Below are positions 1 through 4,369 of a stretch of DNA of 4,369 nt, piece by piece. Origin of the DNA: a virus (taxonomy: Duplodnaviria; Heunggongvirae; Uroviricota; Caudoviricetes); IMG/VR virus record IMGVR_UViG_2778261301_000015, positions 1-4,369 of that record. One strand, 5' to 3'. Both the position numbers and the translations under genes were made by a program. Below the pieces are notes generated by a model. It saw nothing but the letters and a program-made list of their open reading frames with translations, had not been told where the DNA came from and searched no databases. The first letter of the stretch is position 1. Each line of letters starts with the position of its first letter.

Positions 1-825
1 TCAGGCACCAGAGGCGGCAAAAAATATCTCAGAAAGTTTCGTGGTGGAGAAGGAGACACTATCTGGCATGAAACAGTACAGGGCGGGGTTGTTCGCTGGG
101 CGACTGGTAATACTGATGCTCAGGAAGAATTATCACTCAGCTCCGCTTATGGTCTCCGTTCAAGAGGTGAGATTACATCAAGCAGTGCTAATGGTCTGCG
201 CATTGCTTATGGCAATTATGGATTCTTTATCAGGAATGATGGCAGCAGCACTTATTTTATGTTGACTAAATCAGGTGACAGATTAGGCACTTATAATAAT
301 TTAAGACCACTGATTATAAATGATGCCACGGGTGCTGTATCAATGGGGCATGGCCTGAGTGTTACTGGTGATATTGTCTCAAGTACCAAAGTACGTGCCG
401 GTAGCGGGAAAAAATTCACGGTCAGCAGCAGTAATACATCCACGAAGGAAGCCGCATTCAATTTGTGGGGAAACTCAAGTCGTCCGGTGGTGGCTGAATT
501 AGGTGATGATGCAGGCTGGCATTTTTACAGTCAGAGAAATACAGATAACAGCATCACTTTTGCTGTTAACGGGCAGGTATCACCATCTAACTATGGCAAC
601 TTTGATTCACGCTATGTCCGGGATATTCGGCTTGGTGGTGCTGCCACATACAAACCTGCGAACAATGGCATGACATGGACACATCAGGCACCGTCCGGGT
701 GTGTATATTCCGGCATTATTGTTCAGGATACCGGCTCAAACTCTGCCGATAACATTGGTGGCGTATATTACAGACCGGTGCAGAAATACATTAACGGGAC
801 TTGGTATAACGTGGCGCAGGTATAA
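1..825 (+). CDS. H: Tail fibre protein, C-terminal portion (P2 gpH-like); 5' end lies upstream of the window
   Basis: Frame 1 is open from base 1 to the TAA at 823-825 (translation begins SGTRGGKKYLRKFRGGEGDTIWHETVQGG..., ends ...YINGTWYNVAQV). The listed ORF 259-825 is only the part after an internal Met. The Gly/Ser/Thr/Asn-rich composition and the ending resemble P2-family tail fibre distal domains, and the gene is followed 3 nt later by a recognisable tail fibre assembly gene. Confidence 0.85.
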   Translation, partial: SGTRGGKKYLRKFRGGEGDTIWHETVQGGVVRWATGNTDAQEELSLSSAYGLRSRGEITSSSANGLRIAYGNYGFFIRNDGSSTYFMLTKSGDRLGTYNNLRPLIINDATGAVSMGHGLSVTGDIVSSTKVRAGSGKKFTVSSSNTSTKEAAFNLWGNSSRPVVAELGDDAGWHFYSQRNTDNSITFAVNGQVSPSNYGNFDSRYVRDIRLGGAATYKPANNGMTWTHQAPSGCVYSGIIVQDTGSNSADNIGGVYYRPVQKYINGTWYNVAQV

Positions 826-828
826 TTT

Positions 829-1356
829 ATGCAGCATTTGATAAATATAACGGCAGGTAATCCAAAAACGGTTGAACAATATCAATTAACAAGGGATTTT
901 GATGTTGTCTGGTTTTTTTCAGAAGATGGTAAGAACTGGTACGAAGAACAAAAGTATTTTGCTGATGACACGATAAAAATAGCGTACGACAAGGATAATA
1001 TCATCCGCTATGTGGAAAAGGATGTGACAGCTATCAGACCGGATGGATTAAGTGTTGTTGAAGTGGCGGATATTACTGCTAACCGACGGGCGGACATTTC
1101 AGGGGGCTGGATGTTTAAGGACGGCAAAGTGATTAAACGCATTTATACGGCAGAGGAATTGCAGCAGCAGGCAGAAAACCGGAAAGCCAGACTTCTTGCA
1201 GATGCTGAATCCGTGATTTTGCCGCTGGAGCGCGCTGTCAGGCTGAATATGGCTACAGAGGAGGAGCGCACACGACTGGAAGCATGGGAACGCTACAGCG
1301 TTCTGGTCAGTCGTGTGGATCCTGCAAATCCTGAATGGCCGGAAATGCCGCAATAA
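829..1356 (+). CDS. G: Tail fibre assembly protein / chaperone (P2 gpG-like)
   Basis: 175 aa ORF starting [40 protein letters not shown] and ending [21 protein letters not shown], which I recognise as closely resembling P2 gpG. The ATG at 829 lies 3 nt after the H stop with a GGT/AGG-like purine stretch upstream. Position and size match the P2 H-G arrangement. Confidence 0.9.
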
Positions 1357-1405
1357 GTTGTATGAGCTTACATACCTATAGCACAGAGTAAAGCCTAATC
1401 TGACA

Positions 1406-1436
1406 GTCCGCTCTGTGCCAAGAGCGGACGTTTATA
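1406..1436 (+). terminator. Candidate intrinsic terminator after the tail fibre genes
   Basis: Perfect 9-bp stem GTCCGCTCT (1406-1414) / AGAGCGGAC (1421-1429) with a 6-nt loop GTGCCA, followed by GTTTATAA. The T-tract is short and interrupted, so strength is uncertain. It lies 50 nt after the G stop. Confidence 0.45.
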
Positions 1437-1561
1437 ACATTATGAATAATTTATGTTAAAGCATGATTATGCCATTATAGTAGTCTCGCATTGAACTCTT
1501 CATGCCACCATTCTTGTTGGAGCAATTTGTATGATATAATAGTAATCATTACACTTAGTTC

Positions 1562-2485
1562 TTAATGAGGGTTCATTGTCAAATCAAGTGAGTCAGGCAG
1601 TGAATCTCTTTGTTCTTTGGTATAAACATGTAATTTAGCCTTAAAACCTAGAATATCACCTTCCATGGTTAAGAATCGCCCTTTCTCTGCAAAGAACATG
1701 GGATTAATATCTCTACGAACAACATCAGCAAACCAATTAGCTGATTTTGTGGCTTCCACTAACCAATTATGACATTCTTGAATCCATTGCTTATATTTTT
1801 CAACGTCTTCTTCATAATTAACATTCCAGCCACCAGTTTTATAAAATTTATCTGGATAATAAGTGTCTTCATAAAGTTTAGAATGTTCCATGAAAGTTTG
1901 AGCGGCTATGTTAAGGGTTATGGAAAATGTTTCAGTGGCTCTTCGCAGTTCATCAAACTCATTAGGCCATATAGCAGAAATGACTTTTTGCCGAAATTCA
2001 AATATATCATCGGGTAAATTTTTAGGCCACTTAGGATCTGATGATAATGCAAAGCTAGTCCAATTCTGCCAATTTTCTAAACGACAATATTTTACTGCGG
2101 AGTCAATTATTGAAGTTACTGAAACTTGCTTAGCTAGAAAAAATTTATCTTCAACTCTACTAAGAGTTTCAGAAACCCATAACTCATGTGCTGACTTAAC
2201 GTTATAGAGTTTTTCGGCTGGCCAATCTTCTACATTTCTATCAATTTCCGTATGATGGTTTGGGCAAAGGAGAATAAGATTGTGATAACTATTTCTTTCA
2301 TCCAGAGTTAAATTCGATTTTCCTCGAGCCGCATCTTCCTTCTCTCCAATAATATGTGCCTGTTCCCCCAGTGTAAATGCGGAATTAACGGAGTTCTTAT
2401 CCTGTGTCAACTCTCTCTTACAAATTGCACATCGATTTCCGGAACGCCCCCACAACAATTTGATGTCTTTTTGATTTATTGCCAT
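1562..2485 (-). CDS. HNH nuclease-domain protein with uncharacterised C-terminal domain (about 307 aa); candidate anti-phage / exclusion cargo gene
   Basis: Minus-strand ORF with stop TAA at 1564-1562. Numbering from the Met at 2485-2483 (MAINQKDIKLLWGRSGNRCAICKREL...), the protein has CxxC at residues 19-22, His44 in EQAHIIGE, Asn69 in YHNLILLC, and C74-P-N-H77-H78, which is the arrangement of a zinc-binding HNH fold. A Shine-Dalgarno-like AAGGGA lies 9 nt upstream of this ATG and a perfect TATAAT further upstream. The remaining roughly 230 residues (WPAEKLYNVKSAHELW...WNVNYEEDVEKYKQWIQECHNWL...) carry no motif I recognise. Confidence 0.75.
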   Translation of the reverse strand: MAINQKDIKLLWGRSGNRCAICKRELTQDKNSVNSAFTLGEQAHIIGEKEDAARGKSNLTLDERNSYHNLILLCPNHHTEIDRNVEDWPAEKLYNVKSAHELWVSETLSRVEDKFFLAKQVSVTSIIDSAVKYCRLENWQNWTSFALSSDPKWPKNLPDDIFEFRQKVISAIWPNEFDELRRATETFSITLNIAAQTFMEHSKLYEDTYYPDKFYKTGGWNVNYEEDVEKYKQWIQECHNWLVEATKSANWFADVVRRDINPMFFAEKGRFLTMEGDILGFKAKLHVYTKEQRDSLPDSLDLTMNPH

Positions 2486-2513
2486 GTTAAATATTCCCTT
2501 TGGGTGAGTTAAA

Positions 2514-2550
2514 CCCAATATTATAGTTTTTATATAAACAAAAAAAGTAG
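2514..2550 (-). promoter_or_regulatory. Candidate sigma70 promoter for the HNH gene
   Basis: On the minus strand there is a perfect -10 hexamer TATAAT (plus coordinates 2525-2520) preceded by an A/T-rich tract (TTTTTTTGTTTATATAAAAAC) that could act as an UP element. The -35 at 17-bp spacing (ACTTTT) is weak. The predicted transcript start near 2512 gives a leader of about 27 nt containing the AAGGGA ribosome-binding site. Confidence 0.35.
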
Positions 2551-2813
2551 TTTGCCAGAAATTATCATAAAAAAGATGCCTAAAGCCATCTTTCATTAAG
2601 TAATCAGAAAGGCCAAAGGTTGATATTTTCCCCTGGGGATTTTGTCAGGCCTAACCTGAAGGCATTCAATTCCCACTCGTTCTGCATCCTGATTAGCTGC
2701 CATTTGGCCGATATATTGGGTCGTTAAAACCTCATCAACGACGAGAAAAGGGGCAAACATCCGCTTCTTGCTCAAACAGGCGGTCAGATTTGACAGAATT
2801 TAGGTTACGTAAT

Positions 2814-2842
2814 TTGTCAGTTGGAAACTGAGAGAGTATAAA
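2814..2842 (+). promoter_or_regulatory. Candidate sigma70-like promoter on the + strand upstream of FI
   Basis: TTGTCA at 2814-2819 (5 of 6 matches to TTGACA), a 17-bp spacer, then TATAAA at 2837-2842 (5 of 6 matches to TATAAT). This is sequence pattern only, and its role relative to the expected Ogr-dependent late promoter is unknown. Confidence 0.2.
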
Positions 2843-2853
2843 TCAAGGCACCC

Positions 2854-2879
2854 GGCGGATTGCCCGCCTTTTCTTTATC
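2854..2879 (+). terminator. Terminator-like GC hairpin plus T-run (possible attenuator or leader structure)
   Basis: GGCGG (2854-2858), loop ATTGC, CCGCC (2864-2868), followed by TTTTCTTTATC (2869-2879). The stem is only 5 bp. It is oriented for + strand transcription and lies about 95 nt upstream of the FI start. Confidence 0.3.
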
Positions 2880-2972
2880 TGTTGTTTCATCCACTGACCA
2901 GCCAGGTCAAATAGCGTCTCATGTACTGCCCAACAGAAAATAGTTGCACCCATTAACCACGGAGTTAAACGG

Positions 2973-4163
2973 ATGAGTGACTATCATCACGGCGTGCAGG
3001 TGCTGGAGATTAACGACGGCACCCGCGTCATTTCCACCGTATCCACGGCCATTGTCGGCATGGTCTGTACGGCCAGCGATGCGGATGCCGAAACCTTCCC
3101 CCTCAATAAACCGGTACTGATTACCAATGTGCAGAGCGCAATTGCAAAGGCCGGTAAAAAAGGCACGCTGGCGGCGTCGTTACAGGCCATCGCTGACCAG
3201 TCAAAACCGGTCACCGTTGTTGTGCGTGTGGAAGACGGCACCGGCGACGACGAGGAAACGAAACTCGCGCAGACCGTTTCCAATATCATCGGCACCACCG
3301 ACGAAAACGGTCAGTACACCGGACTGAAAGCCCTGCTGGCGGCGGAGTCGGTAACTGGTGTTAAACCGCGTATTCTCGGCGTGCCGGGACTGGATACCAA
3401 AGAGGTGGCTGTTGCACTGGCATCAGTCTGTCAGAAGCTGCGCGCTTTCGGGTATATCAGCGCATGGGGCTGTAAAACCATTTCCGAGGTGAAAGCCTAC
3501 CGCCAGAATTTCAGCCAGCGTGAGCTGATGGTCATCTGGCCGGATTTCCTCGCATGGGATACGGTCACCAGTACCACCGCCACCGCGTATGCCACCGCTC
3601 GTGCACTGGGGCTGCGTGCCAAAATCGACCAGGAGCAGGGCTGGCATAAAACGCTGTCCAATGTCGGGGTGAACGGTGTTACCGGCATCAGCGCATCTGT
3701 ATTCTGGGATTTGCAGGAGTCCGGCACCGATGCTGACCTGCTTAACGAGTCAGGTGTCACAACGCTGATTCGCCGCGACGGTTTCCGCTTCTGGGGTAAC
3801 CGTACCTGCTCTGATGACCCACTGTTCCTCTTTGAAAACTACACCCGCACCGCGCAGGTGCTGGCCGACACGATGGCTGAGGCGCACATGTGGGCGGTGG
3901 ACAAGCCCATCACCGCAACGCTGATTCGCGACATCGTTGACGGCATCAATGCCAAATTCCGTGAGCTGAAAACAAACGGCTATATCGTGGATGCGACCTG
4001 CTGGTTCAGCGAAGAATCCAACGATGCGGAAACCCTCAAGGCCGGAAAACTGTATATCGACTACGACTATACACCGGTGCCTCCTCTCGAAAACCTGACC
4101 CTGCGCCAGCGTATTACCGATAAATACCTGGCAAATCTGGTCACCTCGGTTAACAGCAATTAA
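2973..4163 (+). CDS. FI: Contractile tail sheath protein (P2 gpFI)
   Basis: 396 aa ORF beginning MSDYHHGVQVLEINDGTRVISTVSTAIVGMVC and ending LANLVTSVNSN, which I recognise as P2-family tail sheath. GGAG at 2961-2964 sits 8 nt before the ATG. GC content is high and position-specific, typical of conserved P2 late genes. It is followed 12 nt later by the tail tube gene. Confidence 0.95.
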   Translation: MSDYHHGVQVLEINDGTRVISTVSTAIVGMVCTASDADAETFPLNKPVLITNVQSAIAKAGKKGTLAASLQAIADQSKPVTVVVRVEDGTGDDEETKLAQTVSNIIGTTDENGQYTGLKALLAAESVTGVKPRILGVPGLDTKEVAVALASVCQKLRAFGYISAWGCKTISEVKAYRQNFSQRELMVIWPDFLAWDTVTSTTATAYATARALGLRAKIDQEQGWHKTLSNVGVNGVTGISASVFWDLQESGTDADLLNESGVTTLIRRDGFRFWGNRTCSDDPLFLFENYTRTAQVLADTMAEAHMWAVDKPITATLIRDIVDGINAKFRELKTNGYIVDATCWFSEESNDAETLKAGKLYIDYDYTPVPPLENLTLRQRITDKYLANLVTSVNSN

Positions 4164-4175
4164 GGAGCCTGACCG

Positions 4176-4369
4176 ATGGCAATGCCGCGCAAACTCAAGT
4201 TAATGAACGTCTTTCTGAACGGCTACAGCTATCAGGGCGTTGCAAAGTCCGTCACGCTGCCAAAACTGACCCGTAAGCTCGAAAACTATCGCGGTGCGGG
4301 GATGAACGGCAGCGCACCGGTAGACCTCGGCCTTGATGACGATGCGCTGTCAATGGAGTGGTCGCTCGG
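4176..4369 (+). CDS. FII: Tail tube protein (P2 gpFII), N-terminal portion; 3' end lies beyond the window
   Basis: The ATG at 4176 is preceded by AGGAG at 4163-4167, which overlaps the FI stop. The translation MAMPRKLKLMNVFLNGYSYQGVAKSVTLPKLTRKLENYRGAGMNGSAPVDLGLDDDALSMEWSL runs open to the window end. I recognise it as the P2 FII N-terminus, and FI-FII synteny supports it. Confidence 0.9.
   Translation, partial: MAMPRKLKLMNVFLNGYSYQGVAKSVTLPKLTRKLENYRGAGMNGSAPVDLGLDDDALSMEWSL

Follow-up and report, generated by a model that had tools for sequence, protein, structure and literature searches.

What occupies the AT-rich interval between the tail genes G and FI of a P2-like prophage, how did it come to lie there, and what does it do for its carrier? 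These questions are raised by positions 1 to 4,369 of the IMG/VR virus record IMGVR_UViG_2778261301_000015 (Caudoviricetes), a stretch of 4,369 nucleotides (nt) that is hereafter called the window and whose middle part is a cassette of low guanine-plus-cytosine (GC) content carrying one gene, here called the cargo gene. Judged by its sequence, the window is part of a P2-like (Peduovirus) prophage of Escherichia coli, and the slot that holds the cassette is almost certainly the classical P2 Z/fun accessory region, which reaches from the end of the V-H-G late operon to the pF promoter of FI. As an occupant of this slot, the cargo is new and rare; it belongs to a family that is apparently uncharacterised, widespread and made up of single genes. 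The best overall explanation, which we consider likely, is that a cargo gene for anti-phage defence was swapped into this slot; that the cargo would be a single-protein sensor-effector system for abortive infection is the preferred but more tentative part of it. The slot itself adds nothing new; the value of the locus lies in a candidate sensor domain and in the inverted-repeat junctions of the cassette.

The cargo protein

The cassette contains a single gene, which is antisense to the tail genes (Table 1). The longest open reading frame (ORF) at this place extends over 1562-2596 on the minus strand, encodes 344 amino acids (aa) and corresponds to the RefSeq annotation. More than 100 homologues are 302-306 aa long and start with MAINQKD, and the ribosome-binding site (RBS) and the TATAAT box are both located inside the 37-codon RefSeq extension, upstream of an ATG at 2485. 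Because of these homologue starts and the signals upstream, the product was taken to be the 307-aa protein starting at this ATG, and the extension (2486-2596) is probably not coding. A 59-aa ORF at 2596-2775 on the minus strand is probably not coding either, as it had no Pfam or PADLOC match. The plausible RBS and the perfect -10 box would suit a gene that is expressed in the lysogen, like fun(Z) of P2, while promoter and terminator scans and folding revealed neither a good -35 box nor a clear terminator of the minus-strand gene. Of the features of a moron in the sense of Hendrix and Juhala, the cargo gene has the position between genes and the atypical composition, and the -10 box and RBS are present.

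The N-terminal part of the protein matched Pfam HNH_2 (E value of 1.5e-6, 28.4 bits against a cutoff of 21 bits). Its best PDB match was the HNH-APAZ protein of SPARHA (9om4, 6e-18), which was restricted to aa 1-125 (the match ends at residue 128), and the matches to CBASS Cap5, at 9e-10 and weaker, covered the HNH part only. C22, H44, N69, C74 and H78 were invariant in all 55 aligned sequences, and C19 and H77 were conserved in 54 and 51 of them, respectively; the domain was also aligned to 9om4 and 7rwk. With the catalytic His and Asn of the motif and a Cys/His zinc site present, the HNH (His-Me finger) nuclease domain is intact and is of the Cap5/SPARHA clade.

Comparison with the known members of this clade showed where the likeness ends. 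The cargo and the HNH-SAVED effector Cap5 (7rwk, 8fm1 and 9dif) share an HNH domain of the same clade (E values of 9e-10 to 6e-7 over aa 2-106), and both carry the effector at the N-terminus and a regulatory domain at the C-terminus. However, the cargo has no SAVED domain: the PADLOC SAVED_HNH models and the Cap5 chains aligned to aa 1-150 only, and the C-terminal helical bundle of the cargo showed no similarity to SAVED. Unlike CBASS, the cargo has no adjacent CD-NTase cyclase gene, and none was conserved in 58 loci carrying homologues. SPARHA HNH-APAZ (PMC12738770) gave the best match for the HNH domain, including the N-terminal helix region, but the cargo has neither an APAZ domain nor a partner gene for a prokaryotic Argonaute (pAgo). 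All PADLOC matches were limited to HNH sequence, either of SAVED-HNH effectors or of the candidate system PDC-M68A. The latter was the best PADLOC match of the cargo (3.7e-31), but it was confined to profile positions 5-114 of 253, that is, to the HNH part, and the cargo has no second gene.

A C-terminal domain shared among different effectors

The C-terminal domain (aa 120-307, ca. 180 residues) was modelled as a helical bundle with two beta-hairpins, with a predicted local distance difference test (pLDDT) score above 90. No specific relative of it was found by Foldseek in PDB and BFVD, a profile of the domain had 0 matches among PDB sequences, Pfam returned only noise for 26 members carrying the domain, and NCBIfam and PHROGs gave nothing besides HNH. 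A search with aa 120-307 against 1.84 billion representative sequences returned 391 matches. Apart from HNH forms of ca. 300 aa, these included longer proteins in which the domain was found C-terminal to Peptidase_C14 (caspase), CHAT, PNP_UDP_1, TIR (in several proteins), SEFIR, SIR2_2 and a DUF676-type alpha/beta hydrolase. The PADLOC models bSEFIR, ThsB, LmuA, 'caspase' and 'chat' aligned to the N-terminal effector parts of these proteins only. bSEFIR and the effector-variable LmuA of Lamassu thus resemble the cargo family in having interchangeable N-terminal effectors on a common C-terminal module, but neither their models nor those of ThsB, 'caspase' and 'chat' cover a C-terminal domain of the cargo type. 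Since NADases and proteases need no DNA targeting, the common domain would sense or regulate rather than bind the substrate of the nuclease. A single C-terminal domain joined to different effectors usually points to a common infection sensor that drives interchangeable suicide effectors.

At least 900 relatives of the cargo protein were found in more than 10 phyla. Full-length members that are 50-68% identical occur in Gamma- and Betaproteobacteria, Cyanobacteria, Bacteroidota, Acidobacteriota, Verrucomicrobiota, Deinococcota, Campylobacterota and Desulfobacterota, and Actinomycetota and Firmicutes contain more distant ones. In the collection of papers searched, there was no mention of WP_201795225, WP_052728123 or WP_215255367. 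In the 58 loci, which represent more than 10 phyla, there was no conserved neighbour, and no gene family occurred in more than three loci; because no neighbour family recurs, the cargo protein appears to act alone. The homologues lie at cargo positions of mobile elements or in small islets. The homologue of Enterobacter hormaechei is in an island with integrase, D5-primase and Bro-N genes, that of Providencia is directly beside the integrase of an island at the ssrA site, and that of Pseudoalteromonas is in a small chromosomal islet next to a 302-aa gene. This neighbour was considered as a tandem paralogue and rejected, as its sequence is unrelated; it has an RxxxxH motif and may be HEPN-like. 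A P2-like prophage of Morganella morganii (L104, 6693-7949) carries a homologue in the same G-FI slot and in the same antisense orientation. This homologue is 68.7% identical to the cargo, the sheath proteins of the two phages are 67.5% identical, and the Morganella gene has a GC content of 34% in a phage of 52% GC.

The HNH_2 family (PF13391) includes restriction enzymes, and the cargo might accordingly be a DNA-targeting nuclease of the restriction type (modification-dependent or Type IV-like), whose C-terminal domain reads DNA and which provides direct immunity. That the cargo is a single gene with no partner is in keeping with such a role, as is the fusion of HNH to reader domains, which is common among modification-dependent enzymes (PMC12738770). 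However, the same C-terminal domain is found on TIR, SIR2, SEFIR, caspase, CHAT, PNP and lipase-like hydrolase effectors, for which DNA targeting is not needed; Pfam scans detected no SRA, EVE, McrA-type or other reader domain; and the HNH sequence has its nearest relatives in the collateral-nuclease clade of Cap5 and SPARHA. A restriction nuclease is therefore an unlikely identity for the cargo.

Within this HNH clade, Cap5 and SPARHA have been shown to be activated by oligomerisation and to cut DNA collaterally (PMC12738770). Since interchangeable effectors are found on one domain and the HNH clade behaves in this manner, the cargo was read as a one-protein abortive-infection system. The architecture and the genomic context on which this reading is based suggest the following course. 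The C-terminal domain would sense an infection cue or control assembly, and would then release or oligomerise the HNH domains. The HNH domains thus freed or oligomerised would cut DNA indiscriminately, and the cell would abort the infection by a competing phage. We regard the cargo as probably an anti-phage defence gene; the mechanism by sensing and oligomerisation is put forward tentatively, as a possibility somewhat short of an even chance. If its trigger were found, the C-terminal domain would represent a sensor class new to bacterial immunity.

Several observations weigh against this explanation. The models of PADLOC, NCBIfam and PHROGs matched the HNH part only, and there was no validated homologue; the HNH domain was poorly modelled by AlphaFold2 (pLDDT of 30-55); and a consensus promoter scan found no full sigma-70 -35/-10 pair upstream of the cargo gene. 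Besides, proteins of ca. 200-250 aa carry the C-terminal domain with no recognisable N-terminal domain, which the explanation does not account for. In addition, the parity of divergence between cargo and sheath in the Morganella case may leave both long vertical residence and recent acquisition viable for the family.

The slot and its other occupants

In P2 (NC_001895), fun(Z) is on the minus strand in the same gap between G and FI. The likeness to the P2 Z/fun region includes this position, conserved junction elements and an AT-rich cargo on the minus strand (the P2 cargo has a GC content of 33%), and in both regions the content is non-essential, differs among relatives and shows an enrichment of anti-phage genes. 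The cargo itself differs, as it is unrelated to Fun(Z), a 528-aa protein annotated in RefSeq as a Sll1717-type P-loop ATPase. The name 'Z-region' was reportedly given by Nilsson and Haggard-Ljungquist. The locus is known as a hotspot (PMC9519451; bioRxiv 10.1101/2024.10.15.618418; PMC13586616; PMC3091744): it has been described as a hotspot inside the tail genes (PMC13586616), as the 'Z-region' in which Z/fun is replaced by horizontally acquired genes (PMC3091744), and as the 'second defence-enriched locus of P2-like phages' (Vassallo et al. 2022).

The original prediction regarded the interval as a swappable cargo slot holding different genes in related prophages, and the slot survey bore this out. 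The survey covered 80 IMG/VR loci with a sheath identity of 86-100% as well as GenBank phage and E. coli loci. A total of 57 slots were filled, and their contents formed 40 unrelated clusters (0.85-4.1 kb, GC content of 0.31-0.47), whereas the slot was empty in at least six phages, including the Yersinia phages P37 and GMS190. The window cargo formed a singleton cluster and was absent from the 80 IMG/VR loci and from the GenBank phages. The related prophages are thus far from all carrying this gene: of the 5426 complete E. coli genomes, 2148 had the G and FI flanks and nine had the full interval. Near-identical backbones, with FI genes 99-100% identical, hold different cargos. The swappable-slot reading is therefore supported, yet the phenomenon was already known from the P2 Z/fun region.

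When representative cargos were scanned with validated or candidate defence models, matches were obtained to PD-T7-1, PD-T7-3, ATPase-Toprim_I-B (OLD-like), AriA/PtuA-like ATPases, a DpdB-like protein, a TIR-transmembrane protein, PDC-S15 and REase; Fun(Z) is also among the cargo types. In the same slot of another E. coli P2-like prophage (L005, 1175-2386), a 403-aa protein with a Cap5-type HNH domain was found, whose PADLOC matches were likewise confined to the HNH part. Its C-terminal region looks like an ABC-type ATPase, and if so, this protein represents a second HNH architecture at the hotspot. In strain STEC1588 (L186, 9700-11900), the same cargo as in the window (99% identical) is beside a strongly divergent module of distal H and G, and the identity between STEC1588 and the prophage L001, which is near-identical to the window, jumps near the 3' end of G. 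Modules are thus reassorted around the slot, the receptor-binding and cargo modules independently of each other.

The cassette had also been placed inside a conserved tail operon. It does lie between tail genes, but the gap that it fills separates two late operons, namely the end of V-H-G and the pF-driven FI. Some phages use nucleases against host DNA, and a gene nested among late genes might serve the lytic cycle of the phage itself, for example in the degradation of host DNA, or have another role in lysogenic conversion. However, the cargo gene is on the opposite strand and outside the Ogr-dependent operons, it is dispensable, since most relatives do not have it and some slots are empty, and its homologues are mostly outside phages. 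A role of this kind is very improbable.

Composition and extent of the cassette

A sharp compositional island had been claimed for 1437-2640, and this claim proved to be well founded. The GC content in sliding windows was 0.32-0.39 across ca. 1400-2650 and 0.45-0.60 thereafter, the interval 1437-2640 as a whole had a GC content of 34.9%, and the stated return to about 48% by 2641-2700 was observed (0.48 in the bin 2651-2700). A three-segment likelihood model placed breaks at 1430 and 2846 and gave GC contents of 0.459, 0.359 and 0.559 for the three segments; its log-likelihood ratio was 59.5, compared with a maximum of 14.1 in 100 block shuffles. The island is the 1200-bp stretch of lowest GC in the whole prophage. 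The codon-usage check that had been proposed agreed with this, as the GC content at third codon positions (GC3) was 0.27 in the cargo gene versus 0.59-0.71 in the late genes. A GC content above 50%, which had been stated for G, was found in its 3' half but not in G as a whole (46%).

By composition, the right edge of the island is diffuse. The alignment of the G-FI interval across prophages, which had also been proposed, defined the conserved junctions and yielded the list of alternative cargos. This comparison comprised ca. 90 P2-like loci, with pairwise blastn against 10 loci and then against ca. 70 more. In all ten loci, homology stopped at 1429-1437 and resumed at 2756-2770. In the aligned junctions, the sequences diverged from the base right after ...AGAGCGGAC (1429), and identity was back at AAC(A/G)TCCGCT (2756). 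The left junction (1429/1430) and the right junction (2755/2756) of the cassette are sharp and common to these loci. The left edge lies right at the last base of the hairpin that had been named as its boundary, but the right edge is 115 nt further than 2640. While 2641-2755 has a GC content of 47%, it is confined to genomes with this cargo (nine of nine). Since the entire stretch 2486-2755 was found exclusively in the nine genomes carrying this cargo, it was assigned to the cassette. Accordingly, only the 217 nt at 2756-2972 are shared backbone upstream of FI, rather than the 330 nt that had been proposed.

The 3' flank of the cargo gene has a counterpart elsewhere. The stretch 1437-1588 corresponds to 3501-3654 of locus L022, which is unannotated and occurs in five E. 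coli genomes, where it follows lambdoid-type (non-P2) tail-fibre genes and precedes genes for a 403-aa hypothetical protein and a retron Eco8 effector. This match therefore indicates a short sequence common to the cargo loci of different prophage types.

Low GC need not signify recent transfer. The family may have resided in the Z slot for a long time, its AT-richness being kept either through selection or through the mutational regime that acts on a gene silenced or expressed in lysogeny. The Morganella homologue, whose divergence from the cargo equals that of the sheath and which has the same slot, orientation and low GC, would agree with this, as would the AT-richness of all cargos of the Z slot and of the two other P2 accessory regions. 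Against such residence, backbones with FI genes 99-100% identical hold 40 different cargos and the present one is found in nine of the 5426 genomes; members of the family that are 50-68% identical are found in many phyla, where their surroundings are unrelated; and 152 nt of the cassette are also found at a non-P2 prophage locus. Old residence as the explanation of the low GC is quite unlikely, and the Morganella case itself could reflect either recurrent capture or old co-residence.

Inverted-repeat arms at the junctions

The variable DNA starts and ends at the inner ends of two conserved arms. The left arm (AATCTGACAGTCCGCTCTGTGCCAnnAGCGGAC) includes the hairpin noted in the original prediction at 1406-1429. 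This hairpin, GTCCGCTCT-GTGCCA-AGAGCGGAC, has a 9-bp stem and a folding energy of -18.5 kcal/mol (z = -4.1), and none of 200 shuffled sequences was as stable. It was conserved in 36 loci, with 86% of cells paired. Since a covariation test on these loci revealed no signal beyond that of shuffles, we make no claim of a selected RNA structure. Within the stem, the 3' half, which borders the junction, varies more than the other half, a pattern that resembles a frayed recombination joint more than an RNA structure kept by selection.

The right arm of the window is more degenerate and contains an indel, because of which gapless tools missed it. Around the cargos of L002, L005 and L009, inverted repeats of 33-48 nt with 75-82% complementarity were detected. 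Both arms were present in 35 of the 40 cargo clusters, with 22-32 of 36 positions identical in a fixed 36-nt frame, and both are able to form hairpins. The arm element was not found elsewhere in the prophage. The empty-site phages have neither of the arms and neither of the spacers at 1357-1395 and 2794-2853; their alignment with the window breaks at 1356, and the terminator hairpin and pF follow within ca. 10-15 nt of the G stop codon. The terminator-like hairpin of the window aligns to the empty site of P37, where it is located directly after the G stop codon. The right spacer had no Rfam match and its fold was no better than those of shuffles, an Rfam scan of the window with E values up to 1 gave only a chance-level match to PhrS outside this region, and Tandem Repeats Finder detected no tandem repeats in the window.

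Free-standing HNH endonucleases are frequent in phage genomes, so that the cargo could be conceived as a homing endonuclease that inserted itself by cutting an empty G-FI site, the cassette being a selfish island. The empty sites would provide possible targets, and short repeats bound the cassette. However, forty unrelated and mostly nuclease-free cargos use the same junctions, and because unrelated cargos share them, insertion into the slot appears to be independent of the cargo protein. Moreover, the family is found in more than 10 phyla and mostly outside phage structural regions, Pfam scans found no DNA-binding modules of the NUMOD, IENR or AP2 type, and the PHROG matches to annotated phage HNH endonucleases were weak (4e-5). 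Homing is extremely improbable as the origin of the island.

The pattern of flanks and junctions suggests that homologous recombination in the long conserved flanks (H/G and FI) would be the main route by which P2-like phages exchange cassettes, and that new DNA would repeatedly have been joined where the two inverted hairpin-like arms face the variable DNA. As to the arms themselves, they could have been left as scars by an ancestral insertion, they could be duplicated terminators or insulators, or they could serve as a substrate for recombination that is still active. In the last case, the arms of ca. 36 nt would serve structure- or site-directed recombination that captures or exchanges cassettes at a fixed landing pad, which we consider improbable; if true, it would give a concrete handle on how the defence hotspots of P2-like phages gain unrelated genes from other mobile elements. 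Of recombination at these hotspots, a 2026 survey stated that its processes 'still need to be elucidated' (PMC13586616); it makes no mention of repeats, a statement that does not extend to the first description of the region in 2004. The inverted-repeat junctions together with the natural empty sites constitute a defined system for asking how hotspots take up cassettes.

Backbone genes and accessory regions of the prophage

A P2-like prophage of E. coli 2017.09.02CC (L001) is 99.7% identical to the window, shows the complete gene order of P2, running from the replication endonuclease gene through to ogr, and adjoins yegQ/trhP; in the near-identical genomes, the prophage integration site is beside trhP/yegQ. 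Peduovirus genomes matched both flanks at 90-96% identity, and none of them spanned the middle of the window. The end of the 'tail fiber protein' annotated for L001 in RefSeq is equivalent to position 825. G is homologous to P2 G and to the G genes of all compared loci, up to ca. 1429, and FI has 95-96% nucleotide identity to many Peduovirus genomes. The parts of pF are predicted to be an Ogr activator site at ca. 2880-2905 and a transcription start at ca. 2947-2949, which were carried over by alignment from the P2 NC_001895 features 17555-17583 and 17626-17628. The pF/Ogr-site region at 2880-2945 is markedly unlike those of P2 and P37, and the terminator and 5' untranslated region around it are conserved.

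Table 1. Positions of the features in the window and in compared loci (L) and proteins (P).
Sequence	Feature	Position	Strand	Description
Window	Tail-fibre gene H, 3' part	1..825	+	ORF 259-825; Gp34_trimer match; truncated by the left edge of the window
Window	Tail-fibre assembly gene G, left flank of the slot	829..1356	+	Pfam Caudo_TAP, 2.3e-34
Window	Left spacer after the G stop codon	1357..1395		Conserved; present in filled-slot phages, not in empty-slot phages; junction alignment
Window	Left inverted-repeat arm	1396..1431		AATCTGACA + hairpin 1406-1429; variable DNA follows directly
Window	Variable cargo cassette	1430..2755		1326 bp; GC 0.358; pairwise blastn breakpoints
Window	AT-rich 3' flank of cargo gene and last cargo codons	1437..1588		90% identical to an unannotated stretch of a non-P2 prophage
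Window	Cargo gene, 307 aa	1562..2485	-	Cap5/SPARHA-type HNH (aa 1-125) + helical-bundle domain (aa 120-307)
Window	Cargo 5' region	2486..2755	-	Likely RBS AAGGGA at 2495-2500; perfect TATAAT -10 box at 2520-2525
Window	Right inverted-repeat arm	2756..2793		Left-arm sequence in inverted and degenerate form, AACATCCGCTTCTTGCTCAAACAGGCGGTCAGATTTGA; homology to the backbone starts again
Window	Right spacer	2794..2853		Conserved; present with filled slots, not at empty sites
Window	Terminator-like hairpin + T-run	2854..2877	+	GGCGGATTGCCCGCC TTTTCTTTAT; terminator scan
Window	pF late promoter region	2880..2949	+	Homology to P2 annotation
Window	Tail sheath gene FI, right flank of the slot	2973..4163	+	Pfam Phage_sheath_1, Phage_sheath_1C, Gp18_domIII_N
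Window	Tail tube gene FII, start	4176..4369	+	Mapped RefSeq annotation of L001; truncated by the right edge of the window
L002	Inverted repeats	1306-1347 / 2772-2813
L005	Inverted repeats	883-915 / 2489-2521
L009	Inverted repeats	881-928 / 2726-2773
L020 (Yersinia phage P37)	Empty Z/fun slot	1630-1764
L021, L029, L052, L054, L092	Empty Z/fun slots
P0128, P0143, P0156, P0170, P0191, P0201, P0212, P0246	Effector-fusion and short-form proteins			From the search with aa 120-307

Two other low-GC regions were observed in the L001 prophage. The old/tin hotspot at 1847-4206 encodes a DUF3850 protein and two hypothetical proteins (GC3 of 0.32-0.46), and the orf30 slot between S and V, at 13776-14561, contains a 261-aa gene on the minus strand (GC3 of 0.38).

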